A stretch of 64,000 nucleotides of DNA. Source: a virus. Under the pieces are notes generated by a model. It did not search any database, was not told where the DNA came from, and saw only the letters and a program-made list of their open reading frames with translations. Below, in pieces: positions 5,919 through 64,000 of the stretch (the first letter of the stretch is position 1; every line of letters begins with the position of its first letter). Where the stretch lies: positions 64,001 to 128,000 of the IMG/VR virus record IMGVR_UViG_3300043788_000023; one strand, 5' to 3'. The position numbers were made by a program, and so were the translations under genes.

Positions 5919-5930
5919 CTGCTCCCTCTC

Positions 5931-6167
5931 TTAGTCGAGGATTTTGTCGTTCGGGTCAAAGTCCTGACCAGCGTCTTCCTTCAGCGCCGACTGGAGGAGG
6001 TCAAGGTACTCGTCGTGATCCTTGAACGCCTGCGGTGCCTCGGGTGCGCCGTTCTGATCGCGAACGTCGCCTGCTGCTGCGGACTTGGTGCCGGACATCT
6101 TGTCGTACTCGGACGCGAACAGCGAGTTCATGTTGTCAGCGTCGATTTTGGCGATCTTTTTTGCCAT
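5931..6167 (-). CDS. small acidic protein (MAKKIAKIDAD..., 78 aa)
   Basis: ATG 6167 with AGGAG RBS; K-x-A motifs. Confidence 0.65.
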   Translation of the reverse strand: MAKKIAKIDADNMNSLFASEYDKMSGTKSAAAGDVRDQNGAPEAPQAFKDHDEYLDLLQSALKEDAGQDFDPNDKILD

Positions 6168-6235
6168 GGTCTTTGCTCCTTGCAAGGGGCGGGGATAGTT
6201 TCCCCTACAGAAGGGGCGGAAATACGAGTTTTGCA

Positions 6236-7821: not shown

Positions 7822-7824
7822 TCA

Positions 7825-12966: not shown

Positions 12967-13535
12967 TATGCTGCTCCTACCACGGAGATGAAGTAAGACA
13001 GTTCAAGGATGTCTGGTACTCCGCCCGGCACAAATCCATGCACGAGGAACGAGGTCGGCAGGACAACGAGTGTCTCCGGGCAAAAATTGATTTGAACGCT
13101 GTTGGCGATTCCGTACAGGTGCCCGTCAAATTGATCGTTCTGCATGCCCGTGAGACCGACCGCCTTGAGTTGCAGGTCGTTGGGAAGGTTGTTCCACGAG
13201 TAGAACAGCTTCCAACGGTACTGCGTCGCCGAACTCGGACCAGTGAGGGTTTTTCCCTGCCACAGCGGTTGCGTAGAACCACCCACTATTGAGTTGCTCA
13301 CCGTGCAGGTGTATGGTGCCCACGGGTTGCGTGCGTCCCATCCGGGGTAGCTCGCCCACTCTGCACCGTCAGGCAGGAGGAACGCGACAGGCAAGCCGCC
13401 GTTCGTAAAAGTGTTGTCAAAGATGCGGTTGGTGGTGACGATAAAATCGTCGGAGACGGCGTTGTCCTTGGTGTACTGGTGCAGGATTTCGCCCTCCTGA
13501 GACTTCACGACTATTTCCAGTCGGTTGTTATACAT
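12966..13535 (-). CDS. putative baseplate/tail structural protein (MYNNRLEIVVK...)
   Basis: Start moved to ATG 13535 (AAGGA upstream) to avoid overlap; coupled to downstream gene. Confidence 0.5.
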   Translation of the reverse strand: MYNNRLEIVVKSQEGEILHQYTKDNAVSDDFIVTTNRIFDNTFTNGGLPVAFLLPDGAEWASYPGWDARNPWAPYTCTVSNSIVGGSTQPLWQGKTLTGPSSATQYRWKLFYSWNNLPNDLQLKAVGLTGMQNDQFDGHLYGIANSVQINFCPETLVVLPTSFLVHGFVPGGVPDILELSYFISVVGAA

Positions 13536-13548
13536 CGAGTCTGATCCT

Positions 13549-14877
13549 TTATCCGTAAACCGTGCAAGCAGCGTTTCCGCCCGGCAATTCTGTTGGCGGC
13601 TGACCGACGACGGGCGTGACAAGCTGCCCAAACCCTATGGTGTCACTGGTAATACTGCCTAGCGCGACGAACCCGGCTCTTCCGCCTACACTACAGGTTG
13701 CTGAAGTCGGTCCTTCCTGAAGGGGCGTCGTAGGCTGTCCGGTGACAGGTACTTGGAGACCCGGATAGTCTATAAAGTCCCCAAGGGAGGGGGGTGTCGG
13801 AAGTACTAGAACCAAAAAGCGTTGCGTTGAACTGAAGGACGCCGTGGCGTCTCCCGTCATGAACCCCGTCGCGTACTGTCCGGCGTTCAAATCCATGACG
13901 TCGGAGGGGGCGATCAGGAACCCGAGGTGTCCTTGGGTAGAATCAAAAGCCAAGCTCGGTCCCATCATGCTTTCTTCGTGGTCGTTCGGGTTGCTCGGGT
14001 TGCGTGGGTTGAAGAACGCACCGATGGTGGCGGAGTACTGGAACTGGAGAATGCCTACGTTGGAATCCGTGAAGCCGCTGGATGCAAACGTGGTGTTCCA
14101 GTCCTCAATCAGTGTCCACGTCGGGTTCGGTCCGAGGGGGCTGCGATAGAGACGGAAAAAGTTCGTCGTGTTCGGAAGGTTGGTTATCCACGTCGGGTCC
14201 GGCTGTAACAGGACGCTGTACGTGTTGGTGGTCACGTTGAAGAAAATGATGTTGTGCGCCAAGTACGGCGGGTCAAACTGGTTCCTGACGAATACCGTCG
14301 CCATGTTTGAGTTGGGCACCTCAAAGATGAGGTTGTCGTTCAGCAACCCGGCTGCCGCCCCAGAGTCAGACGTGATGGCGAATGGACTGCTCGTGGCAAT
14401 CGGGATGATTTCGTTCGGGGGCCATACGTTTATGTCCAGCACCCTAACGATCAACCTGCTCAAGAAGTCAAAGATCAGGATGAACTGGTTGAAGGACGCG
14501 GTTCCGCTGTCAGCAGGATTGCTATAGTTCCCGTGTGTGAAAGCTGCTGTGAACGAGGTAGACGTGGCGGTCGCGATCGTGACGACTTGTCCATTCAAGA
14601 AACCCTCGGCAGTGCCGTTTAGGGTGACTGTCTCTCCCACCAAAAAGGAATTGTTGCATGTCACAGTCAGTGTGTTGGCGGTTACCGATGTGGCTGTGAT
14701 GTTCACCGAGACGGCGCTGTACGCTTCCACGGAAGGAGACGTGCCGGGACCGACGAAGAACCAGTTGTCTGGAACGCCCGGCTGCACGGAACCATCCGGG
14801 TTGTGGATGGCACGAGGCAGACGGGTGACGTAGACACCGCCATTTAACTCTTTGCAAGCTAGGAGCCACGTGGACAT
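13549..14877 (-). CDS. virion structural protein with inserted ~70-aa beta module
   Basis: Shares module with 6236-7177 and 7825-12966; TAATG coupling. Confidence 0.55.
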   Translation of the reverse strand: MSTWLLACKELNGGVYVTRLPRAIHNPDGSVQPGVPDNWFFVGPGTSPSVEAYSAVSVNITATSVTANTLTVTCNNSFLVGETVTLNGTAEGFLNGQVVTIATATSTSFTAAFTHGNYSNPADSGTASFNQFILIFDFLSRLIVRVLDINVWPPNEIIPIATSSPFAITSDSGAAAGLLNDNLIFEVPNSNMATVFVRNQFDPPYLAHNIIFFNVTTNTYSVLLQPDPTWITNLPNTTNFFRLYRSPLGPNPTWTLIEDWNTTFASSGFTDSNVGILQFQYSATIGAFFNPRNPSNPNDHEESMMGPSLAFDSTQGHLGFLIAPSDVMDLNAGQYATGFMTGDATASFSSTQRFLVLVLPTPPSLGDFIDYPGLQVPVTGQPTTPLQEGPTSATCSVGGRAGFVALGSITSDTIGFGQLVTPVVGQPPTELPGGNAACTVYG

Positions 14878-49994: not shown

Positions 49995-51464
49995 CTAAAC
50001 TCCCACACCGTTCGCTTGGGCGTATTCCGCACCCTGCTCGTCCGCGATCTTGCGGATTTCGTCAAGGTTCTGGAAGCGCTTCATCTCGCCGTTGAGAAAA
50101 ACCGTCTCAAGGCGGTCAAACGGGTAAGGGACATCACGATTTGAATTCACCACAGTCGCCCAGCGACCACGATCCTGCTTGAGCAGTACGAGGCGTCCGC
50201 CCTTGCTTGCCTTGCCCTTGTCGGTGGACGGGTCCTTGGACACCGGGATGTCCTTGCCGTCAATCACCGCGTTGCAAAGCTTGATGGCGAACTTCTGGGT
50301 GTCACGGTTGACCTTCTGGAGTAAGCCGCCTCCCATACCGCAGACGATGTTCTCGGTTGACCAGTGTGCTGCCTTGATGGCACGAAGCAGCGAGTGGATG
50401 GAGTACAAGTCCATACCGTCTCCCCACAGGGTGCCGATGCACGGGGCAAGAACCTTGTAGCCCTTGCCGTTCTCACGGGTGCCGAAGCTCTCGGCGAAGA
50501 TGTCAAACAGTTGGGGAACCTGAGTGGTCGGATCGCCGGAGTCCGGTCGGCAAACCACCTTGCCCTCACGAGCACGAATCAGATCACGAAACTCTCGTCC
50601 GAGAATTTCCTTTGCGAAGTTGAAGATGTTGTAGGAGTCGCCCACAAGGCTGATGATGCCCTTGGGGTACTTACGCAGCGCGGCTCCGACTTGCTCCGCT
50701 TCGCCAGCGCGACCCTTGATGGTGAACATTGAGTGCTCGGTCGCCGGGACGCTGTACATTGAGACGCGAGGAGCACCGTAGTACTGGTGCGTGTAGTCCA
50801 TGCCGACCATCGTATCGCTACCGAGAAAGTTGATGCCGTGCGCTGCGCCGCCACGCCCAGCCGCCTGCACGCATTCCACGCCCCGGAAGCCGAAGTCGTG
50901 AAGCTGGAAGGGGAGAGCCGCCAAGGTGTCGGCTGTTTCCTCAAGAAACTTGCGGAAGAGTTCTTTGCACATGCGTGACTTGGTCGCAACCGTGGTGCCG
51001 TACCAAGCGTGTTGGAGAACAGTCTCCATCCACTGCCCGATTCCCGGCACCCGCTGATCTGTGGAGCGGACGGTGTAGAGAACATTGCTGACCGGAACGA
51101 TGCTGCCTTCTTTGACCGCTTTGATCTCAACCGGGAGCCGCCCGTCATACTTGTCCAGAATGTATTTCCAGTCGTCGTAGTGGAACGGGAAGCCCTCGTA
51201 GAAGTGGGCTTGGGTGTCTTCCTGCATGTCGTTCAGGTTTTGCAGGGTGAAGAACTTGCCGATGAAATGCTCAATCAAGAGACCTTGAAGCCCGAAGAAC
51301 TGGGTGTACGGAAACTCGCCGCCACGAGATTCAAAGTAGGCGAGCAACTCCTGCACAGCCGCTTCGTAAAAATGGGTGTTCTTGTAGCTGTCCGCCAAGT
51401 GGAGCGGGTTGGGGTCAAACGGTATCGGTGCAGCGTAAGACAAAGTCGGGTTATACACTTGCAT
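49995..51464 (-). CDS. nadV: nicotinamide phosphoribosyltransferase
   Basis: DSYK.H, LHDFGFRG, SVPATEHS, RPDSGDP, GMGGGLLQKVNRDT. Confidence 0.92.
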   Translation of the reverse strand: MQVYNPTLSYAAPIPFDPNPLHLADSYKNTHFYEAAVQELLAYFESRGGEFPYTQFFGLQGLLIEHFIGKFFTLQNLNDMQEDTQAHFYEGFPFHYDDWKYILDKYDGRLPVEIKAVKEGSIVPVSNVLYTVRSTDQRVPGIGQWMETVLQHAWYGTTVATKSRMCKELFRKFLEETADTLAALPFQLHDFGFRGVECVQAAGRGGAAHGINFLGSDTMVGMDYTHQYYGAPRVSMYSVPATEHSMFTIKGRAGEAEQVGAALRKYPKGIISLVGDSYNIFNFAKEILGREFRDLIRAREGKVVCRPDSGDPTTQVPQLFDIFAESFGTRENGKGYKVLAPCIGTLWGDGMDLYSIHSLLRAIKAAHWSTENIVCGMGGGLLQKVNRDTQKFAIKLCNAVIDGKDIPVSKDPSTDKGKASKGGRLVLLKQDRGRWATVVNSNRDVPYPFDRLETVFLNGEMKRFQNLDEIRKIADEQGAEYAQANGVGV

Positions 51465-52389
51465 TTTGGGCCTCCTCTTTCTTGATGCCCTTTTCCTTCA
51501 AAAACTTCTCCAGAAGGATAAAGAGCGGCTGGTGCGTGTCAACGATGTTTCCCGCTACCAGCGCTTCGGTCTTGAACCATCTCACTTCAACAATGTCGTC
51601 GCTCGCCGTCGCACCCTGAGACGTCACGGTCGTAGAGAAGAACGAAGTCTTGACTGCACGGTCGGGCGTGTTGTAGCGCCAGTCGGGAATGAGTGCGGAG
51701 CCGATGTACTGCATCTTGTGCGGGTCAAGCGAGGTCTCTTCAAAGACTTCGCTGCGGGCGTCTGCCTCGTAGGTCGGGCGCTTCCTCTCCGCATGTCCGC
51801 CGATGAAGCGGTACTTTCCTTCTGGATCAGTGTCCTTGCGCCCGAGGAGAATGTTCACATAGTCGGTGGTGAAGATTGCAATGTCCACAGTCGGCAGAAG
51901 CACGGGCCAGAGGTGTGCGGATGCGTAGATCATCCCGGCTCGGAACTCGGACGACTCAATGACGGTGTTGGAAAGAGCGTTGCGGATGTCGGTGCCCTTG
52001 ATCTTGGAGATTTCCACCGGGAGGGTGAGTTCAACGGGGGTGTAGCGCCCTTTGTAGTGCGGGACGAATGAATCACGTCCGCCGTAGAGAGTCGCATCGC
52101 CGAACGTCACGACCGAGGAGATTGCTTTGTCAAGCTGCTCGCTCCACATCTCGTCGTTGCGCACGTCCATGAGCGGGAGCACTGTGAAATCGGGGAATTT
52201 CGCCTGAATCATCCTGCGGCGTGTTTCAAAATCAAGCGGATTGTCTTTGGTGAGTCCGGCTGGGTGAACGCCGACGAACACGATGACGCCGTTATGCCGG
52301 ATGCGTACTTGACGGAACAGTTCCATGTGTCCGTCGTGCAAGTCGTTGACTTGGAACCTGCCTACAACCACTCCGTAACTGGGTTTCAT
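51451..52389 (-). CDS. bifunctional NMN adenylyltransferase / Nudix ADP-ribose pyrophosphatase (NadM-Nudix, NatV-like)
   Basis: VGRFQ..LHDGH, NPL, GT.IR; Nudix-like GGH...ARSEVFEET, A.DD; start corrected to MKPSYG. Confidence 0.88.
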   Translation of the reverse strand: MKPSYGVVVGRFQVNDLHDGHMELFRQVRIRHNGVIVFVGVHPAGLTKDNPLDFETRRRMIQAKFPDFTVLPLMDVRNDEMWSEQLDKAISSVVTFGDATLYGGRDSFVPHYKGRYTPVELTLPVEISKIKGTDIRNALSNTVIESSEFRAGMIYASAHLWPVLLPTVDIAIFTTDYVNILLGRKDTDPEGKYRFIGGHAERKRPTYEADARSEVFEETSLDPHKMQYIGSALIPDWRYNTPDRAVKTSFFSTTVTSQGATASDDIVEVRWFKTEALVAGNIVDTHQPLFILLEKFLKEKGIKKEEAQNASV

Positions 52390-52562
52390 CTGAAGAACTT
52401 TCCGACTACGGCAATCGCCGACAGAAAGAAGGCGGCGACGACCAGCAGTCCAAGTACAGAAGTCAGACGCACGATCACAAACGAGTGGGCGATGACCCAA
52501 TATCCCACATAGAGCAGAAATGCTGCCATCAACACAAGAAGAATGGCGAGACGTCTCATCAT
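52386..52562 (-). CDS. small two-helix membrane protein
   Basis: MMRRLAILLVLMAAF..., GGAG RBS, ATGA coupling. Confidence 0.5.
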   Translation of the reverse strand: MMRRLAILLVLMAAFLLYVGYWVIAHSFVIVRLTSVLGLLVVAAFFLSAIAVVGKFFR

Positions 52563-52698
52563 ACTTATCTCCAACTCCCAAATCTTATCCGGTACGCAAT
52601 GGGGGCGCTGACGACAGCGAGAACTACTCCCAAAGCGAGGACGTACCGATGGGTGAAAATGTCCGTCCATGTAGAAACCAAGATCATCTGAGGGGGCA

Positions 52699-52938
52699 TC
52701 ACTTCAGTTCTCCGGCTGCGAAGGCTTTCTCAAGCTCGGCGCTGACGATGGGGTTGTCCACTCTAAAAACGGCAACAGAGTCCCACTGCTCTTGGAGCTT
52801 CTTGGCGTACCCACGATCACTTTCTGAAAGAGCGGTGTTGTACTTCAGGTTGAAAAGGAAGTTCGCCATCTTCGCGCCAATGAAGTCGGCGCGGGTAACC
52901 GGACGGCGTGTCTCAGCCTTTTTCTTAGCCTTCGCCAT
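52699..52938 (-). CDS. hypothetical protein (79 aa)
   Basis: GAGAGG RBS. Confidence 0.6.
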   Translation of the reverse strand: MAKAKKKAETRRPVTRADFIGAKMANFLFNLKYNTALSESDRGYAKKLQEQWDSVAVFRVDNPIVSAELEKAFAAGELK

Positions 52939-52951
52939 CTTGACCTCTCAC

Positions 52952-54988
52952 TTACTTAGATGCGGCGGTCTTGGGTAAAGCGTCAATTTCTTTCAGGAAT
53001 CTGGAGGGGGCTACCCGCTGGACGTTGGCGCTGCCTTGGACGGGCACCTTCTCCGGTAGGCACAATACTAGCGCATCCTTGGCACGGGTGCAAGCTACAT
53101 AAAACAAACGCCTTTCCTCCTCTATTTCCTCGTCGGAACCCATGGAGAACCTGTTGGGGAGGCTGCCCTCGTACACGTTGGTGACGTACACCCGCTTCCA
53201 TTCCAGCCCCTTCGCGGAGTGGATCGTGCTGATGGTCACGGAGCCTTGGCGCAACTCCTCCATCTTGCGGTCGTACTGCATCTGGGTAAGCTCCCCGGTC
53301 GCAAGCTGGCGGTCGTACATGATCTTCTCAGTCTCGTCGCCCTTGGTGCGGTCAAGCGCCATCTGGAAAATCAGGTCTTCCAGCGTCATGTTGGCGTCAA
53401 TGGTGAGGGACTGAACCATGAGAATGAAGCGTTCGATGTTCTCCAGCTTGGTCTTCACCTTGTCCGGGTCTTTCTTGTACTTTTCCTTCTGGTACTTGCG
53501 GTAGTCAAACAGGGCGAGCAGCTTCTCAACGGCGGTGAGAGGCATGTCCTTGAATTCGGTGACCATGTCAACGATGCCGATGAGATTGTGCAACCGTTCG
53601 TTTTCTTTCGCGGCCTCCAACAGGTCACCGTCAAACCGCTGGTTCGCGTCAATCCTCAGCTTGTTGAGCGCAACCTCGCCCACGCCACAGCGGGGCACGC
53701 CGCAGCAGCGCATGAACGCAGTGAAGTCCTTGCGGTTGCATACCAACCGAAGATAGCCAAGGATGTCCTTCACCTCCTCGGTCTGGAGCAAGCCACGTCC
53801 GCCACGCACGATGTACGGGATACGCCGACGCACAAGCTCACCCTCTAGGTCACGCACCTGCATACCGCTGCGCACGAGGATGGCATTTTCTTTGAACAGA
53901 ATCGGGTCTTGTTTACGTGAAGCATCATTCTTGATCTGCTGGGCGATGATCTCGGCGCAGTTCTGGGGCAGGCTGGCACGGAACAGTCGCCAGTCCCCTT
54001 CCTCCTCACGGAACACGTCCATTTGAAGAGGGATGGTTTCAGTCATCGTCTTTTGAATCTTGTTGGCGAGATGCACGATCAATTTCTTGCTACGGTGATT
54101 CCGCTTGATGCGGTGCATGGTGGGCGTCGTATCACGCCAGTTCTCGCTGTAGTCCTTCAGGATTTTCGGCACGGCTCCGTTGAAGCCGTAGATGGACTGA
54201 CCCATGTCCCCGACGACGTACAGGTTCATGTTCTCCGGTGCGAGGAGACCGTTGACGAATTCCCACTGCACCGGGTTCGTGTCCTGTGCCTCGTCCATGA
54301 GGACGTGATCAAATTGCTTTTGAAGGACTGCCTTCCACTGTGGGTCGTTGCGCATCCTGCGGACGACGAGGTGGAGCATGTCGTCAAAGTCAACCACGGA
54401 GTTCTTGCGCTTCTCGTCCTCAAAAAGCTCCCAGAGGTCAAGGTACTCCTCGGTCATTGCATGATACCCGGAGTGCTGCTCAAGCGCCTTCTCATGGACA
54501 GCGTCGGTGTAATCGTCACGGAAACCCACGCCACGAGCACGATGGAAGCCGATCTTCTCCAGAACGGAGTAGGTGTAGCCGTTGCCCCGAGGTTCGCTGC
54601 GCCCGTGCTTCTCGTCGTAGCGTTCAATGATCTTCTTCATCAACTGCGATTGGTCGTATTCGTCAAGCGGTGTAACGTGCTGCTGAAGACCGAATGCTTT
54701 GGGGTTCTTGCGGATGCCGGACAGTGCGAGGGAGTGGATCGTGGAGACACGAGGCTCCTTGTCCATGGGCGTGTCAAGACCCAAGCCAAGGCGATCCTTG
54801 AGTTCTCCCGCGGCCTTATTGGTGAACGTGATGGCACAGATGCGACGGGGCTGCACGCCCTGCTCCATAAGCCAGCGGACACGCTCAGTGAGCACACGAG
54901 TCTTACCAGAGCCAGCGCCAGCGATTAGAACGGCAGGCTTACCTACCGGATGCTGTACGGCGGCTGTTTGCTCTTCGTTTAGCTGCAC
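52952..54988 (-). CDS. UvrD/PcrA/Rep-family SF1 DNA helicase
   Basis: LNEEQ, AGAGSGKT, TFTNKAA, DEAQD, VGD..QSIYGF, STIHSAKGLEW, EERRLFYVACTRA; start corrected to GTG 54988. Confidence 0.92.
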   Translation of the reverse strand: MQLNEEQTAAVQHPVGKPAVLIAGAGSGKTRVLTERVRWLMEQGVQPRRICAITFTNKAAGELKDRLGLGLDTPMDKEPRVSTIHSLALSGIRKNPKAFGLQQHVTPLDEYDQSQLMKKIIERYDEKHGRSEPRGNGYTYSVLEKIGFHRARGVGFRDDYTDAVHEKALEQHSGYHAMTEEYLDLWELFEDEKRKNSVVDFDDMLHLVVRRMRNDPQWKAVLQKQFDHVLMDEAQDTNPVQWEFVNGLLAPENMNLYVVGDMGQSIYGFNGAVPKILKDYSENWRDTTPTMHRIKRNHRSKKLIVHLANKIQKTMTETIPLQMDVFREEEGDWRLFRASLPQNCAEIIAQQIKNDASRKQDPILFKENAILVRSGMQVRDLEGELVRRRIPYIVRGGRGLLQTEEVKDILGYLRLVCNRKDFTAFMRCCGVPRCGVGEVALNKLRIDANQRFDGDLLEAAKENERLHNLIGIVDMVTEFKDMPLTAVEKLLALFDYRKYQKEKYKKDPDKVKTKLENIERFILMVQSLTIDANMTLEDLIFQMALDRTKGDETEKIMYDRQLATGELTQMQYDRKMEELRQGSVTISTIHSAKGLEWKRVYVTNVYEGSLPNRFSMGSDEEIEEERRLFYVACTRAKDALVLCLPEKVPVQGSANVQRVAPSRFLKEIDALPKTAASK

Positions 54989-55745
54989 GCTTTTTCCCTT
55001 CAAACCTAGCAACGAGGGCGGTTGCATTGTCGCCCGTAGGCATTGCCACAGCACGGTCAACGATGGCTTGCGCCTCAGCGCCTTCCTCAACCAGCTTGAC
55101 TATGCTCTCTGCTGCCACGGCAAAATTGTAGTGGCTGGGATCAAATACGCCGTCCGTCGCTACGATTACGAAGCTGTCTTGGTTGACCTTTACGGTATAG
55201 ATGTCAGGCACACGTGACAGCACACGGTTCAAGTGGTAGTTGCCGAGAGCACGTGCCATCTGCAACCCACCGCCGCTGAAGCTTGCGCAAAGGTAGCCGT
55301 TAAGGACGATTCCACCACGCTCCTCCGCTGCCCTGCGCTCTTCGTAATTGGTGCGGACATTGTGCTCGGGTCCGATGTTGATCTTACCCTCGGCGTCCTT
55401 GATGACGATGGGACTGTCTCCCAGAATAGCGCACGTCACCGTGTTGCCCCTGTACGGAATGTACGCGAGGGACAGCGTGGAGCCGGGGTTGAGATGCCTA
55501 GTCAGCGAGTGAAGCTTGTTGATCGCCTTCTTCAGGGCGGTGCGAGGCGTGGCTTTAGGCTCGGTAATCTCGTCGGCGAAAATGCCGGGAAACTTCTCGG
55601 ACGCAAGGTGCGACACTTGCTGACCGCCATGGCCGTCAAACACGCCGATCAGCAGCCCCTTCGGGCAGCTTACGGTGAAAAAGCGGTCTTCCTGATAACC
55701 ACGCAGACCCACGTGGGTCGCAGATGTTGTAGGTTTTATCTTCAT
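54939..55745 (-). CDS. PP2C-family Ser/Thr protein phosphatase
   Basis: R.YQED, GVFDGHGG, GST, GDS, RALG, ATDGV, DN.T. Confidence 0.9.
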   Translation of the reverse strand: MKIKPTTSATHVGLRGYQEDRFFTVSCPKGLLIGVFDGHGGQQVSHLASEKFPGIFADEITEPKATPRTALKKAINKLHSLTRHLNPGSTLSLAYIPYRGNTVTCAILGDSPIVIKDAEGKINIGPEHNVRTNYEERRAAEERGGIVLNGYLCASFSGGGLQMARALGNYHLNRVLSRVPDIYTVKVNQDSFVIVATDGVFDPSHYNFAVAAESIVKLVEEGAEAQAIVDRAVAMPTGDNATALVARFEGKKRAAKRRANSRRTASGR

Positions 55746-56032
55746 ATCATGTACTGCGTGACTTGGATGTTCACGTCCTTGAAAACGATGTCGTAACAGG
55801 GTTCGCACAAAACCGCGGTGTGTATGTCCCCGTCTTTCTGGGAACCATAGCCCCAGCCTTGCTTGAGCAGGAAGTGGTTGGCGAACGAAGGTTCGTGGTA
55901 GATGCTGTACGGCTCGCCCATAGGGTTCCAGCCGCCCTCTACGATCTTCTCAATCTCCACACCGCAGCGGTCGCAGGTGACCTTGTCCAATTCCTTGCGT
56001 TCGGAGTTGACGATTTTGTATGTTAGACCCAT
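55742..56032 (-). CDS. small Zn-binding hypothetical protein
   Basis: CDRCG...WGYGS.KDG...LCEPC; start corrected. Confidence 0.6.
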   Translation of the reverse strand: MGLTYKIVNSERKELDKVTCDRCGVEIEKIVEGGWNPMGEPYSIYHEPSFANHFLLKQGWGYGSQKDGDIHTAVLCEPCYDIVFKDVNIQVTQYMI

Positions 56033-56105: not shown

Positions 56106-57221
56106 TTAGAAGCCGCTGTCTCCGCCAGAACTGCCGCCGAAACCGCTGTCGCTGGAGCCGCCAAAATCGCTGCTGGGCGGGTCGTAGCTGGGCGTGGATT
56201 CCGGTTCGGAGAAGCTGGTGTCCGGTGCCGACTGCGTAGGCTCTTCCCAAGTTGAGTCGGGAGCCGAGGGCGCAGGCGGGGTGTAGGAGGGCGCTGGTTC
56301 AACGTAAGTCGTCTGCGGTTGTTCATAGACCACAGTCGGGTTGTTCGGACGGCTGAGCATCTCGCCGACCACTAAACCAGAGACGAAGCCATCGCCACTG
56401 CCGGAGTTGTTGTTGATCACGGTCGTGTGCGAAGGCGCTGCCGCTGCGTAGCGGTAGGGGTTGGGCGGTGTGGCGTAAGACGTACGATCCGGCACGGGCG
56501 TGGTGTCGTAGTCGGTTGTCGTGGGTGTGGTCGTTTCCGTTTCCTCAGTCTTCTTGCGGAGGACGAAGTAAAGCACGAGACCGAAGATGCTCAACGTGAG
56601 CAGGACAAGGAAGAAAACCAGGAGTCCAGACGTTCCGCTGTTGTCGGTTTGCTGGGTCTGCACCGGGGCTGTGTTCTGCGCACCTGACGCTGTGTACGTG
56701 CGTGGTTGCCCGGCTGCGCCGGGTCCACGCTGTTGAGCGACGTGGAAAGAAGTCGCCTGCCCGGTCGTGCCCGTCAGAACGGCCGCGAGACCTAGTTCCC
56801 ATTGGCGGTTCTTGAAATACGTGTTGGAAAGCTGGCTGTAAGTGGACGTGATGTCAAACGCACCGTTGTAGTACGAGCCGAGAAACATGTTCTTGGCGCG
56901 GTCGTTCGGCGCAACCATGACCACGAAGAGATTCGCCTTGCGCTGTCCGTTGGTCGTCCAGCTTGGGCAGTTTAACTCAAAGCGCCGTTCCACGTCGGAA
57001 AGGCTGGAGCCATAATTGGCGATTGAATCAACGATGACGACCTTGACGTCTGCGCCTTGATTGATCAGAGTGCGGGCGGCGCTGCCGATGACCTGCGGGT
57101 TGTGGATGACCCCGGCTTGGTCAATGATGGTCGCATTGCATTGAGTCTGGGTTTGGGCTTGAGTCAGCGGGGCAAAGAGTAGAACGAGCGCCGCGACGAG
57201 CAAAGACAATCTTAGGTTCAT
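56106..57221 (-). CDS. TPM-domain membrane protein (YgcG-like) with Gly/Ser-rich tail
   Basis: Signal peptide, IIDQAGVI, TM helix, C-terminal DFGG.S.GG.SG.F. Confidence 0.7.
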   Translation of the reverse strand: MNLRLSLLVAALVLLFAPLTQAQTQTQCNATIIDQAGVIHNPQVIGSAARTLINQGADVKVVIVDSIANYGSSLSDVERRFELNCPSWTTNGQRKANLFVVMVAPNDRAKNMFLGSYYNGAFDITSTYSQLSNTYFKNRQWELGLAAVLTGTTGQATSFHVAQQRGPGAAGQPRTYTASGAQNTAPVQTQQTDNSGTSGLLVFFLVLLTLSIFGLVLYFVLRKKTEETETTTPTTTDYDTTPVPDRTSYATPPNPYRYAAAAPSHTTVINNNSGSGDGFVSGLVVGEMLSRPNNPTVVYEQPQTTYVEPAPSYTPPAPSAPDSTWEEPTQSAPDTSFSEPESTPSYDPPSSDFGGSSDSGFGGSSGGDSGF

Positions 57222-57322: not shown

Positions 57323-58012
57323 TTAGAGGACGAACTTGAGTCCGCCGCCGCCAGTCCACGTGGTTGCACGCAGAATGGACGAGGTAGAACCCGTCAGGTT
57401 GGACGAGAAGGACAAGGTCTGGGTGAAACGGAGGTGCTTGCGAATTCCAGTCTTGCCGAGGATGATCTCGTTGGTCACGTTGAAGGAACGATCTGCCACC
57501 GGGGGATTGATGTTGGTGATGGAAAAGCCACCGGGCAGGATGTAGTTGGCGATGATGCGATCACGGCTGAAGTTGAAGCCGCCGCCGACGAATGGACGGG
57601 CCTGAGCAACGTTCACGCTGGTAAAGAAAGAGCGGACGCCCTCTTCACCTTGCTGAATGGTCGTGAAACCTGTGACTTGGTTGGAGTAGGATGCGCCGCC
57701 GCCGACGAGCACTACCTTGAAAATCTTGAGGTAGCCTGACCCCGTCACCTTGCCCGTGTAGCCGGACGCGGTGCTGAAGCCGTTGGCAAACGATTCCTGA
57801 TAGTTGACATCGAGCAGCAGGTGCTTGGTGCTGGACTCAATACCGACGCCGACGTTGGCGCTCGGGGTGGAAGAGTTCAGGACTGAGCCTGTGCCAGTTC
57901 CGGTGATGCCGATGGTGCCGTAAGGTGCAAAAGCGCCGTTCTGTGCGTGAGCCGGGGCGACGAGCGCCAGAGCCGCGAACAGAGCGATGACTGCTAAGGT
58001 TAGAACCTTCAT
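57323..58012 (-). CDS. secreted outer-membrane beta-barrel protein
   Basis: Signal peptide AHA-Q; alternating beta strands; RPFVGGG, C-terminal GGGLKFVL. Confidence 0.7.
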   Translation of the reverse strand: MKVLTLAVIALFAALALVAPAHAQNGAFAPYGTIGITGTGTGSVLNSSTPSANVGVGIESSTKHLLLDVNYQESFANGFSTASGYTGKVTGSGYLKIFKVVLVGGGASYSNQVTGFTTIQQGEEGVRSFFTSVNVAQARPFVGGGFNFSRDRIIANYILPGGFSITNINPPVADRSFNVTNEIILGKTGIRKHLRFTQTLSFSSNLTGSTSSILRATTWTGGGGLKFVL

Positions 58013-58106: not shown

Positions 58107-59033
58107 TTAGTTGAAGTGGGCGAATAGGAAATTCACCCCGCCGTCGTTGCTGTACACGACACCATGCTTTAGGCTCGCCACTACGATGTGGTTTCGGTCT
58201 GTGGCGATCATGTCATTGACAACCACGACGTTGAGGCTCCGACGCTTCCAAGAGTCCCCGCCGTTGGTGGAAAGGAATACGCCGTCAGTCGTCCCAGCAT
58301 AAATCGTGTTCTTGTCCACTTGGAAAAGAACCTTGGTTCGCCGTGCATCCTTGCTCGTCTTCAGCTTTTTGTACTGCTCACCGTCGTCGCTGCCTTTGTA
58401 TATGCCGGAGCACGCACCGATGTAGACCGTTGAGGGGTCGGTCTTGTCAAGGATGATGGAAAAGAAATCTGAATCGTTGATCAAGCCCTTGTCTATGGGG
58501 TGCCAAGCGGCTCCGCCGTTGTGCGTGACGTAACCCAAGTGCCAAGTCCCTGCAAAAATCTGATTGGGGTAGTTCGGGTCTACAGCTACGCTCTGGACGT
58601 TCTTGATCGTGAAAATTTTGTCCCAAGTCATCCCCTGATCCGTTGAACGATACACGCCGTCCAAACCGCCAGCGATGAGCGTATCCCCGGAGAGTGCCAA
58701 CCCACGGATGCTTTTGTGGAGCGTCAGTTCCCAAGTCTTCCCTTCATCAAGGGAACGGAAGAAGTCGCCCACATTAGGATTGTTCAAATCCCAAGCGGCG
58801 ATGTAGATGCGACCGCCGTCCGTCAGGATGCGGTCAATCACGTACTGGTTGCCGAACGAAACGAAAGCTTGCCACGAAACGCCTTGATCGTGAGAGGTGT
58901 AGAGGATTCCAGCGGAGGTTCCTAGATACAGCACGCCGGGGGCGGCTGCCAAGCTGCGGGCCTCTATGTATGGCATAGAGACCCGCGCCGGGACAAGGAA
59001 GAATACTACGAGTGCGAGGAGAAAGGCTCTCAT
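58107..59033 (-). CDS. secreted BNR/Asp-box beta-propeller protein (Ycf48/GH74-like repeats)
   Basis: Repeated S.D.G.(S/T)W motifs, signal peptide. Confidence 0.8.
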   Translation of the reverse strand: MRAFLLALVVFFLVPARVSMPYIEARSLAAAPGVLYLGTSAGILYTSHDQGVSWQAFVSFGNQYVIDRILTDGGRIYIAAWDLNNPNVGDFFRSLDEGKTWELTLHKSIRGLALSGDTLIAGGLDGVYRSTDQGMTWDKIFTIKNVQSVAVDPNYPNQIFAGTWHLGYVTHNGGAAWHPIDKGLINDSDFFSIILDKTDPSTVYIGACSGIYKGSDDGEQYKKLKTSKDARRTKVLFQVDKNTIYAGTTDGVFLSTNGGDSWKRRSLNVVVVNDMIATDRNHIVVASLKHGVVYSNDGGVNFLFAHFN

Positions 59034-59509
59034 TGCTCCCGAATCGTGACAGTGTTGCCCGTGGTCGCATCGGCAGTTACGCTGATGCGGGAAGGAGCAA
59101 TTCCGAACTTGGATTCACCGCTGGTGAGATAGCGACGAACGCCCTGAACGTTCTTGGCACTTCCACGAACCACGACTGTCTTGGTGGGATTGCTCTGCAA
59201 CCACAACGCCACAGTGTCAAGCGATGCTTTGCAGAGGTTGGTGACCACAGCCTTGGCTCCGAACTGGCACGATGCGTCAAACGTCGGCACAGTTGCAGGT
59301 GTGGGTGTAACCGGAACCGGAGTCGGAACCGGGGTGGGTGCCGTAACCGTCACCACTGCCGGGGGCACTGGTGTTGGAGGAGGCGGCACTGGTGTCGGTG
59401 CTATGGTCAGAACCAAAGCTGCCGTGGCAACCACGACGGCGGTAATGAAAGGTCGCCGTGCCGCCAAGTGGAGAACGCCTGAAATACTTCCCGATGGAGA
59501 ACCGTACAT
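59030..59509 (-). CDS. membrane-anchored Pro/Thr-linker protein with degenerate OmpA-like C-terminal domain
   Basis: TM, PTPVP linker, KASLD.VAL.LQ..P...VVV.G...V..YL...GI...RI. Confidence 0.55.
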   Translation of the reverse strand: MYGSPSGSISGVLHLAARRPFITAVVVATAALVLTIAPTPVPPPPTPVPPAVVTVTAPTPVPTPVPVTPTPATVPTFDASCQFGAKAVVTNLCKASLDTVALWLQSNPTKTVVVRGSAKNVQGVRRYLTSGESKFGIAPSRISVTADATTGNTVTIREQ

Positions 59510-59510
59510 G

Positions 59511-60392
59511 TTATTGTCGCCCCTTTTTGTTGAAAAGATTCCAATCAAATGATGTGTTGAAGAAGAAATAAGCACCCGTGGACGAAAGCCCCGAGATGAA
59601 GCGGTTTTCGTGACGTACCGAAGCGCCTATCTCAGTGTACACGCCGTGGATGGGAGCAGCAAGCTTAATTCCGCCACCGCCCGCAACTTTGTTTTCCCAA
59701 TCGTTCCCCTGCGTGTCGCCGACGAATCGGATTTCAGCGTAGGGAATGAGAGCCACGCGACCGAAGCGGTGAGCGATGACGCCCTGTTGGACGTTGCCCA
59801 TGCCGATCACGTTGTTGTGCTCAATGGGTTCGATGTTGCCCGCTTCAAACCACGCAGAACCGGGGAAGCGGCTCTTCGGGTCAGCCATGGGCTGCCAGCC
59901 GAACCAGCCGTTGACGAAGCCTGTTGCTCCGCCGCGCTGCGTTGGCAGGTTGTAGGTGCCGTTGACCAGAGTCGGGCTGAGGAACTGTCCGGTTCCGACG
60001 TAGCGATCTTCGTACTGGTAGCCACCGCTGACGCTGATGACTCCATGCCGGAAGAACTTGTTGATCTTCGCTCCACCGAACGGCAGGACCATGTTGTTCC
60101 ACGGGTAGCCGTAGGTGTCGTTGCCCAGCGAAACGCTGGCGTATGGGGTGAATGTGACGGAGCCTTTGGCGGTGCTAAACAGCGTTACGCCCTGCTCCAC
60201 GTAGATTTCGGATTGAATGTTGCCATGCTCGACCGGGCTTGAGTCGCCGACTGACGTCCAAGCCTGACCGGGAAAGGCGGAAACTTGCAGCGTGCTGCCC
60301 TTGGCAGCGGGGATCGGGCCGTCCTGCGCGAAAGCCGCTGAGGCTACCGTCAGGGTTAAAGCTAGGAACAGTGCTGAGAGTACGTTTTTCAT
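59511..60392 (-). CDS. secreted outer-membrane beta-barrel-like protein with internal duplication
   Basis: Signal peptide AFA-Q; two FPG.AW...P.EH.N...V.QGV...PYA...DT.G..W.N.V..GG.K repeats. Confidence 0.65.
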   Translation of the reverse strand: MKNVLSALFLALTLTVASAAFAQDGPIPAAKGSTLQVSAFPGQAWTSVGDSSPVEHGNIQSEIYVEQGVTLFSTAKGSVTFTPYASVSLGNDTYGYPWNNMVLPFGGAKINKFFRHGVISVSGGYQYEDRYVGTGQFLSPTLVNGTYNLPTQRGGATGFVNGWFGWQPMADPKSRFPGSAWFEAGNIEPIEHNNVIGMGNVQQGVIAHRFGRVALIPYAEIRFVGDTQGNDWENKVAGGGGIKLAAPIHGVYTEIGASVRHENRFISGLSSTGAYFFFNTSFDWNLFNKKGRQ

Positions 60393-60479
60393 AAATCTCC
60401 TTGTTCCCCTTTGATGCTGTGAACATCGGGCGGGGTGCGCCCTTTTTGAAAAAAGTGCTTGGTGCCAGTAATTTTTACC

Positions 60480-61544
60480 TTAGTACCTCTTTACAGAGAA
60501 CCACGCTTCTGCGTGTTTGCGGGCGACGATGGTCTTCCAAAAACTGGTGAAGAGTACACCACAGTCCACAAAACGCATTACCACATACGCAGGGGACGCA
60601 AGTATCACATCCATCCTACGCTCGCTGATGCCGCAAAACACGGCAAGCGCGAATGTAATGAGGAAGTCGCAGCCTGTGAGCCACAGCATCCTCATCGGAT
60701 ATTTGAGCAGGAAGTACGGGAATAAACAGAGCATTACCCCGAAGAACATGCCCTCGCCCATGAGCAGCTTCCACTCAAGGTCAAGTCTTTTCCAGCCAGT
60801 AAAAATGTTGTACTTCAGACCAATCTGCCAAGTGCCAGTATACCACCGATTCATCTGTTTTACATAGTCCGTCAGCGTGCGTGGGTCCTGCGTGTAGACC
60901 TCGGCCTTCGGTCGGTACACGATCTTGCCCATATTTTGGCGGTGGACTTGGAGGGTCACGTCCATGTCTTCGACCAGCGTGTCACGGTTCCAGTCCAGCT
61001 TGGCGAACACGTCGGAGCGATAGCTGGCGGCGCATCCTGGTGCTACGTTGATCACGCCCATGTTGCTCTGCGCCTCGCGGTAGATGAAGTGCGTCACGAA
61101 GTAGCCGAAGCAGCGGTAGGCCGTGAGCCAGTTGTACGGCACACTCTTCGCCCTGCCGCACACGAGGGCGACATCCTTCCGTCCGTAGAAGCCTTTGCGG
61201 ACCTCCCGGTAGTATTCCTCGTTGACCATCGTGTCGGCGTCCATCAGCGTGATGATGTCGTAGCGCTTGATTAGGTCAAAGTGGCTACAGGCACGGGCGA
61301 TGGCGTTTGCCTTGCCGACGTTCTTCTCGTTGCGGAGCACGTTCACGCCGAACGACGCTGCGATCTCCCCGGTGCCGTCCGTGGAGCCGTCGTCAATCAC
61401 GTACACGTCAGACGACAGCATCCGGGCGTTCAAGATGCTCTTCACTGTGCGGGCGATCACCCTTGCCTCATTCATGGCGGGAACAATGACACAAAGCCTC
61501 AAGTCGGGACTCCTCAGTTCTGTTCTCAGGTCTTCGCTAATCAC
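60480..61544 (-). CDS. processive GT2 glycosyltransferase (PgaC/IcaA/cellulose-synthase-like)
   Basis: VPA.NE, DDGSTD, GKA.A, DAD, EDMD, QMNRW and C-terminal TM helices. Confidence 0.9.
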   Translation of the reverse strand: MISEDLRTELRSPDLRLCVIVPAMNEARVIARTVKSILNARMLSSDVYVIDDGSTDGTGEIAASFGVNVLRNEKNVGKANAIARACSHFDLIKRYDIITLMDADTMVNEEYYREVRKGFYGRKDVALVCGRAKSVPYNWLTAYRCFGYFVTHFIYREAQSNMGVINVAPGCAASYRSDVFAKLDWNRDTLVEDMDVTLQVHRQNMGKIVYRPKAEVYTQDPRTLTDYVKQMNRWYTGTWQIGLKYNIFTGWKRLDLEWKLLMGEGMFFGVMLCLFPYFLLKYPMRMLWLTGCDFLITFALAVFCGISERRMDVILASPAYVVMRFVDCGVLFTSFWKTIVARKHAEAWFSVKRY

Positions 61545-62500
61545 CGAGCCACGACCGTCAACGCTCTGGCATCAAACGCGACGTTGTACACACCATCTTC
61601 GGATTCAAGCTTGACTCCCTGCTGGAAAAGGTTGACGTTATCCGGTGCAGTGATGCGCAGCGTTACGCCGTCAGGAAACGCTGGTGGTACTTCCCATGAG
61701 TAAGTCACGCCGTGCGTGTCCGTCCCCTGCTTCGCATGTTCAAATGCTTCCTGCGCCCGGAGGTAAGCTGCAACGGTTCCGAACGGTGCGATCCACAGCC
61801 CTTTATCTTCCTGCGTCTTCATGTAGTCAAGCATCCCGGTGAATGTCTCAACCGGAATAGGTTCCCAACCGCTTTTCTCATCACCGATTCCGTGAATCTG
61901 GAGCACAGTCCAAGCGTTCTTGGACATGTCGGTATCCACCCAGCTTTTGTACGTGTCAAGCGTAGTCGCTGTCATGGTGACCTGCGACGGGATGTTGTAG
62001 AAGTCTGTGTTGTCTGCGGGCACGACGTAGAAGTTGTCAGACCATCCGGCACGAGCGGCGAAGTGGAATGACTTCACCCAGCCGTCCAGCCCCGGTGACG
62101 TCTCGCCGTATGGGTAAGCGAAAGTGTAAGTGCGCAGACCCATGTTGTCCATCAGGAAATGCACCGAGTCCTCAATCTGCTCCTCTGTGTTCTCGGCATC
62201 AAGCAGATTCGGGTGCTCGTGAGTCATGGTGTGGCTGCCGATTTCCTCTCCGTTCGTCGCAGCTTTTTCCCAATCCTTGAAGCGGGACAGTTTGGAGATC
62301 AGGAGGTAGAAGGTGCCACGCATGTCACGCTTTTCAAGCTCCGGCACGGCGATGTCAAGCTGGCACGGGCGGGCGTCGTCAAACGTGAGCGACACGGCGG
62401 CCGTGTGATTGTCCCACGGAAGGACTTTCAGCGTCGGCGCAGTTTGAGCTTGTGCCGAGACACACATCAGGGTCAGAAACAGCACTGCAAATAGTCTCAT
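61541..62500 (-). CDS. secreted polysaccharide deacetylase (CE4/NodB-like)
   Basis: Signal peptide from MRLFAV; TFDDA, SHTMTH, FAYPYG, LQIHG. Confidence 0.88.
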   Translation of the reverse strand: MRLFAVLFLTLMCVSAQAQTAPTLKVLPWDNHTAAVSLTFDDARPCQLDIAVPELEKRDMRGTFYLLISKLSRFKDWEKAATNGEEIGSHTMTHEHPNLLDAENTEEQIEDSVHFLMDNMGLRTYTFAYPYGETSPGLDGWVKSFHFAARAGWSDNFYVVPADNTDFYNIPSQVTMTATTLDTYKSWVDTDMSKNAWTVLQIHGIGDEKSGWEPIPVETFTGMLDYMKTQEDKGLWIAPFGTVAAYLRAQEAFEHAKQGTDTHGVTYSWEVPPAFPDGVTLRITAPDNVNLFQQGVKLESEDGVYNVAFDARALTVVAR

Positions 62501-62544
62501 ACCAATAGTATACAGCCGAGTGTGCAAGTTTGGCTGGGTCATCG

Positions 62545-64000
62545 TCAGTTCTCCACCTGTAAGATGCTCGCCACGGACGGGATGCCGGACGAGTTCACAA
62601 GAAAAAGCATGTAGTAGCCCGGAGGGGCTACGGAACCGTTGGGCGGCACGGTCGCGGTCAGCGAACCGGAGCCGGATGTGAAAGTCACGCCGACGTAGCG
62701 CTGATCGGTGTCAAACGAGTGCGTGTCAGCGCCAAGCTTCATCAGTACGACCGTCTTGATGTTGGTGTTCGGCGTTGCGATCTGAAAACTCTGACCGTAG
62801 TGCAACACGGTCGGTGCGGTCGTGATAGTCGGGCGGGACGCCGGGGAACCATCCGGGTTCCAGAAGTACGGCGGTTGATACACTTCAATGTGATTGTCAA
62901 ATTGTCCCTGCGCTGGATTGCTGCCCATGGAAACCACGGAACCGTCCGGCAGAAGCAGCGCCGTGTTGTGGTAGAGCCGGGCGTAAGCCTGCGTCCCTGC
63001 GGGGCTGAACGAATCCGTCGCCGGGTCATAGATTTCCGCATCCAGCGATGCAGTCGCCGGGTCTTCGTCGTTCGCAGAACCAGCCATCGTCAGCACTTTT
63101 CCGTTCGGTAGAAGGACAGCTTGCATTTCAATGCGTCCCAGCTTCATGTTGCTTTTGCTGTAGACCCAAGCCGGATTCGGCTGGCTGAGGTCAATGGTTT
63201 CCACGGTGTTCGTCGCCGGGTCGTTCCCGCCGAACGTGACGACCGTTGGCTTGTACGTGGGCGGCACGAGCGGAAGCAGAACAGCGGAGCCGTAGGTGCG
63301 GATGCCCGTGTAGTTCGTCTTGGCAACTTCGTTCCAGACCGTGGGGTTCGCTGGGTCAAACATGTAGGATTGCACATCAGGTCCAGCGTAGAAGACCTTA
63401 CCGTTCGGCAGCAGGAACATGCGTGGATAAAGCTGCGGATAGAAGCCGTTGTCAACTGTTCCGTTCAGCGCAGGGTTCGTGGCGAAGTACGGGTCGTTGA
63501 AGTCCCAGCCGTTCGCCGCGCTGTAGAATTCCACGGTGTTGTTGTCCAGTGCGTTCTGATCTTGTCCGCCGAATACCATCATGCGTCCGTCGCCTAGTTC
63601 AACCACGGTCGGGTACCAGCGCCCATCCACCATCGGAAGGTCGGTGTCCGTAAAAGTCGTTGTGTTCGGGTCATAGATCGTTGCGTTTGAGGAACCAAGA
63701 AACTGGTCATCCGCAACGGTGGAGGCGTTTCTTGCCACCTTGTGCCCCGGCATCCGTTCGGAAGTATTTGTCGCTGCGCCCGGTGCGCGTTCAGGTTGAC
63801 TGTGCCCCATCGCCCGCATCATTGCGGCGACTGTGCCGCCAGCGTAACTCTGCGTGCCTCCTGCGACGAACAGCCGCCCGTCAGGCAGGTGGGCAGCGCC
63901 ATTGCAGAAGATGTCCCAGCTAGTGGTGGGAATGGTCGTGATGGTCTGCTTGATTGGATCAAGAACCGCCGCCGTGTACTGTGCGGGTGTGGTCGGGCAT
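62545..64000 (-). CDS. galactose/glyoxal oxidase-like copper radical oxidase (AA5, kelch + C-terminal Ig-like domain), 5' end beyond window
   Basis: Frame open to window edge; DIFCNG (cofactor Cys), RWYP (Tyr), RLYHN (Tyr-His), THS (His), PPGYYMLF. Confidence 0.9.
   Translation of the reverse strand, partial: CPTTPAQYTAAVLDPIKQTITTIPTTSWDIFCNGAAHLPDGRLFVAGGTQSYAGGTVAAMMRAMGHSQPERAPGAATNTSERMPGHKVARNASTVADDQFLGSSNATIYDPNTTTFTDTDLPMVDGRWYPTVVELGDGRMMVFGGQDQNALDNNTVEFYSAANGWDFNDPYFATNPALNGTVDNGFYPQLYPRMFLLPNGKVFYAGPDVQSYMFDPANPTVWNEVAKTNYTGIRTYGSAVLLPLVPPTYKPTVVTFGGNDPATNTVETIDLSQPNPAWVYSKSNMKLGRIEMQAVLLPNGKVLTMAGSANDEDPATASLDAEIYDPATDSFSPAGTQAYARLYHNTALLLPDGSVVSMGSNPAQGQFDNHIEVYQPPYFWNPDGSPASRPTITTAPTVLHYGQSFQIATPNTNIKTVVLMKLGADTHSFDTDQRYVGVTFTSGSGSLTATVPPNGSVAPPGYYMLFLVNSSGIPSVASILQVEN

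Follow-up and report, generated by a model that had tools for sequence, protein, structure and literature searches.

It is established that phages break down the polysaccharides of their hosts and modify O-antigens; for a whole polymer factory borne by a phage, with synthase, two modifying enzymes, putative exporter, and trimming enzymes, the only parallel known to us so far is in the algal chloroviruses. We present here the analysis of a run of genes for envelope-directed proteins in the virus record IMGVR_UViG_3300043788_000023 (169,608 bp). The window studied is a stretch of 64,000 nucleotides, bases 64001-128000 of this record. Positions are given in window coordinates, those past 64000 being window-equivalent, and record positions are obtained by adding 64000. 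Four consecutive genes at the right end of the window encode a copper radical oxidase, a polysaccharide deacetylase of carbohydrate esterase family 4 (CE4), a membrane glycosyltransferase of family 2 (GT2), and a duplicated beta-barrel. We consider it probable that they are the core of a synthase-dependent exopolysaccharide cassette, which was taken from bacteria by a lineage of large Terriglobia phages and kept in working order.

The oxidase, deacetylase, synthase, and barrel genes

All long open reading frames of the region are on the minus strand. The four core genes, in coding order, are as follows.

62545-64242 (record end 128242), minus strand: GlxA-like copper radical oxidase (AA5-type), a lipoprotein of 565 amino acids, the C-terminal 484 of which are encoded inside the window
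61541-62542, minus strand: secreted CE4 (NodB-homology) polysaccharide deacetylase, 333 amino acids, with a C-terminal extension of about 100 amino acids
60480-61544, minus strand: membrane-integrated GT2 of the hyaluronan synthase (HAS)/chitin synthase/BcsA/PgaC class, 354 amino acids, a GT-A domain followed by three C-terminal transmembrane helices
59511-60392, minus strand: secreted 12-strand beta-barrel with two homologous halves (BAR family), 293 amino acids, the conserved partner of the GT2

An earlier note on this DNA had described four co-oriented genes, the first three tightly spaced, and this arrangement was found as claimed. The oxidase stop codon is followed after 2 nucleotides by the ATG of the CE4 gene, and the GTGA overlap of the CE4 and GT2 genes was read directly at 61541-61544. 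The GT2 and barrel genes are separated by 87 nucleotides, which include an AAGGAGA ribosome site. One nucleotide past the barrel stop begins the ATG of a gene for a small anchored protein (SML), which in turn overlaps by ATGA with a gene for a BNR/Asp-box beta-propeller. These spacings and overlaps therefore give two translationally coupled triplets. No transcription units are claimed, because a scan of the cassette for consensus promoters and terminators gave counts no higher than those in shuffled sequences. Two boundaries had to be redrawn. The oxidase was identified correctly, but its gene runs 242 nucleotides beyond the window; the four-gene unit stands, but the cassette is larger and also takes in SML, the BNR gene, and a divergent gene for a GH16 glycanase. 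Counting the GH16 protein, encoded just outside the window, nine adjoining gene products are directed to the envelope.

The GT2 protein matches the Pfam families Glyco_tranf_2_3 (6e-25), Glyco_trans_2_3 (PF13632; 3e-17), and Chitin_synth_2 (7e-7). It carries the DxD, ED base, and QxxRW motifs of processive synthases: Asp51/52, Asp102-x-Asp104, Glu192-Asp193, and Gln230-x-x-Arg233-Trp234 are invariant or nearly so in 64 homologues, and D51/D52, D102-A-D104, E192-D193, and QxxRW are invariant in another set of 37. The transmembrane segments are at residues 260-331; in an AlphaFold2 model (predicted local distance difference test score [pLDDT], 88.5), they come after interface helices. The top Foldseek match of this model is the Chlorella virus hyaluronan synthase (Cv-HAS; TM-score of 0.77-0.79 by query, E 4e-16), and vertebrate HAS1, chitin synthases, and BcsA come next. 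Because of these fold matches, the enzyme is placed among the processive membrane synthases and not among the GtrB-type carriers.

A different account would have the genes remodel or degrade host polymer at entry or lysis, with the GT2 as a GtrB-like lipid-carrier enzyme for the modification of O-antigen or lipopolysaccharide. The best PHROG match of the GT2 is indeed "GtrB-like O-antigen conversion," the ExDxxE motif of the GH16 protein is intact, the BNR protein resembles a glycosylhydrolase family, and phage glycanases are common. The PHROG match, however, covers residues 16-112 only, while the whole-length fold is that of HAS, chitin synthase, and BcsA, with PcManGT in 38th place at a root-mean-square deviation of 9.6. 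The invariant QxxRW and ED motifs also speak against it, as do the matches to PF13632 and Chitin_synth_2 and the position of the three transmembrane helices after interface helices; such a scheme also leaves the strict linkage of GT2 and barrel across phyla without a role. We rejected the GtrB-like assignment of the GT2 and judge the account as a whole to be quite improbable; a polymer-making cassette remains our preferred reading.

The CE4 protein has a hydrophobic signal at its N-terminus and matches Polysacc_deac_1 (PF01522; 7e-17, 61.9 bits against a cut-off of 23.1). The motif residues of the family (the Asp-His-His metal triad of TFDD and HxxxH, with the catalytic Asp and His), Asp55-Asp56, His104, His108, and His217, are invariant in 46 homologues. 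In the alignment with PDB structures, the Arg of motif 3 is replaced (A-Y-P-Y); the PDB matches are peptidoglycan and chitin deacetylases.

The oxidase matches GO-like_E_set (1e-25) and Glyoxal_oxid_N (4e-14) in Pfam, and its closest solved structure is Streptomyces GlxA (4unm, E 6e-52). Residues Cys113, Trp209-Tyr210, Tyr424-His425, and His508 align with the copper and cross-link residues of GlxA and are invariant in 45 homologues. The Cys-Tyr pair, stacking Trp, axial Tyr, two His ligands, and both domains of an AA5-type enzyme, kelch propeller and C-terminal E-set, are thus present, preceded by a lipoprotein signal (L-T-A-C16; lipobox residues 13-16). Both the resemblance to the CslA-GlxA pair and the intact catalytic motifs of the three enzymes, which the earlier note had reported, were borne out by these alignments.

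No Pfam family matched the barrel protein. An AlphaFold2 model based on an alignment of 32 homologues (mean pLDDT, 83) has twelve long strands. Outer-membrane barrels were the only matches of this model, both in Foldseek (KdgM-family porin, autotransporter beta-domains, and OmpG; E about 1e-6) and with an exhaustive structural aligner (VIA; Z up to 11.3, with BcsC at Z 8.8). The nearest folds in the ESM Atlas outside the family are Acidobacteriota TPR-plus-barrel proteins (TM-scores of 0.64-0.66) and BcsS (0.53). At 35% identity over 96 residues (E 1e-15), the two halves confirm the internal duplication that the earlier note had described. As expected of an exporter, the protein combines a barrel fold and a signal peptide with a gene encoded alongside that of the synthase.

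Among 1.84 billion representatives, 306 clusters (50% identity) belong to the BAR family. Its members are stand-alone proteins of ~270 amino acids, longer forms of ~450-580 amino acids with an N-terminal LysM domain, and half-size proteins of ~140-158 amino acids. Pattern searches of IMG/VR did not find the family, whose sole relative there is a distant one in UViG 3300047321_000416 (L082, 8079-9535), where a 39%-identical GT2 is followed by a single-repeat barrel half of 156 amino acids (hhalign against the barrel family: 99.3%, E 2e-20). This half may represent the unduplicated ancestral form, which would have to dimerise.

The barrel gene directly follows the GT2 gene in nearly all of ~70 loci. 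When a single genome was screened for each prokaryotic species, 69 loci came to light. About 10 of these are GT2-barrel pairs of the Candidate Phyla Radiation (CPR)/Patescibacteria (among them L054, L056-L058, L062, L064-L066, and L069), some with a short CE4. These loci have a guanine-plus-cytosine (GC) content of 33-49%, which is native to the genomes that carry them. Four CPR barrel carriers had no Omp85/BamA match, while one Terriglobia genome has five; the family is therefore not universally a classical export porin inserted by the beta-barrel assembly machinery (BAM). The earlier note had called the protein an outer-membrane barrel of an export module. Of this, the barrel fold stands, while a role in export across the outer membrane is suggested by the fold only and is clouded by the CPR homologues without Omp85. 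A barrel copy from Yanofskybacteria has an N-terminal LysM domain. A predicted membrane beta-barrel is puzzling in CPR cells, which are thought to have no outer membrane.

The chief rival on the barrel component starts from this point. It holds that a polymer is made but that the barrel, working without BAM, anchors or guides a wall or envelope glycan, the product being a cell-bound coat or adhesin and not a slime released from the cell. Besides the low-GC CPR pairs and their lack of Omp85, the LysM domain that precedes the barrel in CPR and other long forms favours this idea, as does the barrel C-terminus, which lacks the customary final aromatic residue. On the other side, the fold matches only transmembrane barrels of the outer membrane, the strands alternate polar and hydrophobic residues as in membrane barrels, and the nearest Atlas folds are of the PgaA/BcsC type. 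We regard the anchor or guide role as possible but rather unlikely, and a synthase-dependent exopolysaccharide system remains our preferred reading.

Phage context and probable bacterial origin

The contig is a fragment of a large soil phage related to Tunturi 5. The major head protein encoded in the window is 72% identical to its counterpart in Tunturiibacter phage Tunturi_5, a 309-kb jumbo myovirus infecting Terriglobia (PMC11924767). The window also encodes a tail sheath, NAMPT, NMNAT/NUDIX, and a UvrD helicase that is 49% identical to that of Tunturi_5. The pair of NAD salvage enzymes (NAMPT and NMNAT/NUDIX) is typical of large phages. Features that place the cassette between phage genes are as follows.

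49995-51464: NAMPT gene, in the same conserved block as the next entry
51451-55808: block of PP2C phosphatase, UvrD helicase, and NMNAT/NUDIX fusion genes, kept in the phage contig L074 and partly in Tunturi_5
Record 129543-130634, minus strand: eight tRNA genes (three Gln, three Thr, and two Ile), just past the GH16 gene

On the far side of the cassette, past GH16, the tRNA genes are joined by genes with PHROG matches, and an array of eight tRNAs fits a jumbo-phage backbone. ARAGORN also reported a tRNA-Glu gene, two tRNA genes with CUA (amber-reading) anticodons, and a permuted tmRNA-like gene at record positions 138306-138782 and 141322-141644.

Could the stretch be host DNA, joined by assembly chimerism or left from the sequence beside an integrated prophage? 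Close relatives on Terriglobia chromosomes (45-58% identity), a GC content equal to that of the Terriglobia loci (56-58% in both), and the incomplete contig would allow it. Against it, phage genes flank the cassette on both sides in the same contig, and the GC content is even along the window with no break around the cassette. Contigs from JGI, ENA, and Logan samples show the same gene order, again with phage neighbours; the phage copies form a clade of their own; and such a head protein is absent from the bacterial genome whose copies are nearest. Host DNA is therefore a very improbable explanation, and the contig is not chimeric at this place; the cassette belongs to the phage.

Its genes do occur together elsewhere, in phage contigs from independent samples as well as in bacterial loci. 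Contigs L077 and L078, in which the barrel is 95% identical, have the full layout (divergent GH16, then oxidase, CE4, GT2, barrel, SML, and BNR) in the same order up to PP2C. In L074 (72%), CE4, GT2, barrel, SML, and BNR are followed by PP2C, UvrD, NUDIX, and NAMPT. The same five genes are found in L003 (56%; ENA ERZ25039540), a 211-kb phage-like contig that also encodes DNA and RNA ligases and PNKP. L003 has a GC content of 43%, far from that of the window and of Terriglobia, and its host may be from another phylum. Between the window and L077, the ratio of nonsynonymous to synonymous substitution rates (dN/dS) is 0.07-0.25 in all nine genes, which places the cassette under purifying selection. 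L074 and L003 have no oxidase, and their short CE4 is only 25% identical to that of the window. The oxidase, GH16, and Terriglobia-type CE4 were therefore either gained in the lineage of the window or lost or replaced elsewhere.

A second variant of the cassette is carried by the phage-like contigs L080 (202 kb; 4422-13677) and L081 (1797-12953). There, a large Big_2/CE4 or Ig-like protein gene is followed by genes for GT2, barrel, two small open reading frames, a TonB_C protein, and an M48-like protein of 635-661 amino acids. This variant points to more than one capture by phages. L080 also encodes an HMUDK_hel gene; such genes are typical of DNA-hypermodifying phages.

The cassette is absent from the 26-kb stretch of Tunturi_5 inspected around its homologous helicase, and Tunturi_5 is not among the tblastn results for GT2, barrel, and BNR. 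In tblastn searches of GenBank phages, the barrel family and the BNR protein were not found, and all GT2 matches were distant (≤31% identity). No cassette protein matched a PADLOC defence model.

Most of the 69 bacterial loci are in Terriglobia or other Acidobacteriota. In ~40 of them the order is CE4, GT2, barrel, an M48-like protein of 635-664 amino acids, and oxidase; GH16 is frequently within a few kilobases, and a second oxidase paralogue is frequently upstream on the opposite strand. The M48-like protein, which has a weak M48/M78 metalloprotease signature, is encoded between the barrel and oxidase genes at L002 10830-12824 and at equivalent positions in ~40 Terriglobia loci. The cassette of the window has neither this protein nor the second oxidase paralogue. 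The four-part combination is thus not specific to phages, as the earlier note had implied, but is a conserved chromosomal cluster in ~40 Terriglobia genomes. No paper on this CE4-GT2-barrel-oxidase cluster was found in the literature searched.

The GT2 and barrel trees agree with each other, so the two genes do not have unrelated phylogenies. In both, the four phage copies and the bacterial loci L005 and L076 form one clade (support of 99-100) beside the main Terriglobia clade; L005 and L076 carry a CE4-GT2-barrel-SML variant whose neighbours are ordinary bacterial genes. The phage oxidase stands apart on a long branch, beside the clade of cluster-linked oxidases and that of the second bacterial paralogue, and a recent copying of the cluster-linked Terriglobia oxidase was rejected on this account. 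Judged from these trees and from the gene order, the phage cassette appears to derive from the Terriglobia cluster of bacteria.

A predicted pathway and its parallels

The cassette would work as follows. The GT2, whose enzyme class is shown, would polymerise a UDP-sugar in the inner membrane and thread the chain outward. The product is most likely a beta-linked glycan of N-acetylglucosamine (GlcNAc) type, given the affinities of the GT2 with PgaC, HAS, and chitin synthase, the constant CE4 partner, and the LysM fusions in the barrel family. The secreted CE4, by the activity of its family, would take off part of the acetyl groups, and the lipoprotein oxidase would turn primary alcohols (C6) of the glycan into aldehydes, as proposed for GlxA acting with CslA. 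Cross-links could then form between these aldehydes and the amines set free by the CE4. To judge by its fold and strict gene linkage, the 12-strand barrel may pass the chain across the outer envelope or anchor it there. SML, whose C-terminal domain looks to be of a disulfide type, would together with BNR and GH16 couple, trim, or release the chain. A cell that is infected or lysogenised would thus acquire a new, modified surface polymer. Receptor masking, aggregation, and resistance to predation, which the earlier note put forward, are speculative uses of such a polymer, as are superinfection exclusion and protection of the virocell. The logic of synthase, deacetylase, and barrel put forward in the earlier note is supported by the gene identities and the intact active sites.

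Several points weigh against this pathway. The scores against families of known function are low: the best NCBIfam matches of the GT2 and CE4 proteins are TIGR03937 PgaC_IcaA (89.9 bits; cut-off, 422.3) and HfsH (49.7 bits; cut-off, 400), and the oxidase reaches 250.7 bits against the GlxA equivalog NF052501 (cut-off, 800), mainly over residues 176-563. On Cv-HAS, the TM-score of the GT2 by target is only about 0.56-0.59. The GT2 has three transmembrane helices, none of them N-terminal, where Cv-HAS has six; since part of Cv-HAS only is covered, a partner or an oligomer may be required to complete the translocation channel. The GH16 and BNR proteins could serve degradation equally well, and the CPR carriers without Omp85 count here too. 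With no terminal repeat on the contig, the genome is taken as incomplete, and we infer a Terriglobia host only from the kinship with Tunturi_5 and the gene phylogeny. By these scores, none of GT2, oxidase, and CE4 is an orthologue of a characterised enzyme. An assignment of the GT2 as a PgaC orthologue was rejected, the score being far below the TIGR03937 cut-off; the name "PNAG synthase" (poly-N-acetylglucosamine synthase) given to homologues is automatic.

Among characterised systems, PgaABCD/IcaADBC is similar in having a GT2 with the D,D,D, (T/V)ED, and QxxRW motifs and in encoding a secreted CE4 and a dedicated barrel beside the synthase. The phage GT2, however, has no N-terminal transmembrane helices (90 versus 422 bits), and there is no PgaD. 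The phage CE4 lacks the C-terminal hydrolase-like domain of PgaB, and the barrel is a duplicated 12-strander of 293 amino acids without TPR, whereas PgaA has 16 strands. The known synthase-dependent exporters (PgaA, BcsC, AlgE, and PelB) have 16-18 strands and TPR partner domains. The cassette also adds the oxidase, GH16, and BNR and is carried by a phage.

The CslA-GlxA-CslZ tip-glycan system of Streptomyces (with LpmP) likewise combines a GT2 with a membrane-tethered GlxA-type oxidase and a glycanase. The phage oxidase differs in being a lipoprotein rather than N-terminally anchored (251 versus 800 bits), the GT2 is PgaC/HAS-like and not CslA-like, the glycanase is GH16 and not GH6, CE4 and barrel are present, and the host is diderm. 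In Stigmatella, FbfA/FbfB pairs a chitin-synthase-like GT2 with a galactose-oxidase-like protein, the genes being chromosomal and developmental; this likeness of a GT2 and an oxidase-like protein was compared by description only, and we know of no CE4 or barrel partner of FbfA/FbfB.

Viral systems offer further comparisons. The HAS and chitin synthase of chloroviruses (PBCV-1 A98R and CVK2 CHS) are virus-encoded processive membrane GT2 enzymes, and Cv-HAS is the best structural match; chlorovirus GT2 synthases cause infected cells to extrude a surface polymer that is new to them. These viruses differ in having an algal, eukaryotic host, an enzyme with six transmembrane helices, and no set of deacetylase, oxidase, and barrel, and the identity is only about 17-18%. 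The gtrABC and TarP-type enzymes of temperate phages are phage-borne GT2s that alter a host surface glycan; those of the GtrB-like class have a GT-A domain and two C-terminal transmembrane helices. Such seroconversion enzymes block superinfection and add single sugars to existing polymers, via lipid carriers or directly; unlike the cassette, they have no QxxRW, synthase fold, deacetylase, oxidase, or barrel.

A polymer-synthesis cassette of this kind was described for no phage in the papers and phage collections searched, in agreement with the novelty of the four-part combination in phages that had been proposed. Literature searches on GlxA/CslA in Acidobacteria, phage copper radical oxidases, and phage PNAG-type synthases found nothing relevant.

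A bolder version, which we offer as a doubtful conjecture, takes the GT2-barrel pair as an undescribed minimal exopolysaccharide system with a BAM-free barrel that arose from a duplicated six-strand half. Such a half would survive as a gene of its own in a viral contig, and the presence of the barrel in CPR bacteria, in some cases with a LysM fusion, would speak for independence from BAM. Large soil phages would have captured the system more than once, with deacetylase and oxidase added in the present lineage. The infected Terriglobia cell would then surround itself with a glycan gel, self-cross-linking through amines and aldehydes, that protects the virocell or keeps out rival phages.

Terriglobia rank with the most abundant bacteria of soil, where their extracellular polymers aid aggregation and carbon retention. 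Polymer production driven by a phage, if true, would be a new viral route shaping the soil matrix and host survival. The bacterial system of GT2 and duplicated 12-strand barrel, joined in Terriglobia by a GlxA-like oxidase, is itself undescribed and would extend the CslA-GlxA idea to diderm bacteria. A copper radical oxidase with a natural glycan substrate may also interest enzyme engineers.

Other exported proteins next to the cassette

The neighbouring genes for exported or anchored proteins, from right to left, are as follows.

Window-equivalent 64332-65192, upstream of and divergent from the oxidase gene: membrane-anchored GH16 glycanase (PF00722; 46.8 bits against a cut-off of 22)
59030-59509, minus strand: SML, 159 amino acids, with one transmembrane helix and a Pro/Thr-rich linker
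58107-59033, minus strand: BNR/Asp-box beta-propeller, 308 amino acids, with an N-terminal signal or anchor (Pfam Sortilin-Vps10 and BNR)
57323-58012, minus strand: secreted beta-rich protein, 229 amino acids, with a signal peptide and a weak OMP_b-brl lead only
56106-57221, minus strand: exported TPM-like membrane protein, 371 amino acids, with a long low-complexity Ser/Thr/Pro tail

In the GH16 protein, the ExDxxE motif (E175-I-D177-A-P-E180) is invariant in 29 homologues. In an alignment of SML sequences, the cytoplasmic peptide at the N-terminus is invariant, and the C-terminal domain (~80 amino acids) has two invariant Cys residues. SML had no match in Pfam, NCBIfam, or PDB, even as a profile, and a weak Atlas lead to OmpA (score of 0.84) is all that was found; its homologues come behind the barrel gene in two bacterial loci and three further phage contigs. 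SML is in turn followed by the BNR gene in L077, L074, and L003, all of them phage contigs. The BNR protein matches the NCBIfam F510_1955 glycosylhydrolase family at 89.6 bits, below the cut-off of 175, and is a candidate glycan-trimming or glycan-binding partner.

L077 and L074 have homologues of the 229-amino-acid protein in the corresponding position. This protein was considered as a second copy of the barrel family and rejected, since it is not a BAR homologue. The 371-amino-acid protein has weak TPM_phosphatase and TM-family matches and a homologue in L077, and both proteins are possibly part of the same envelope island.

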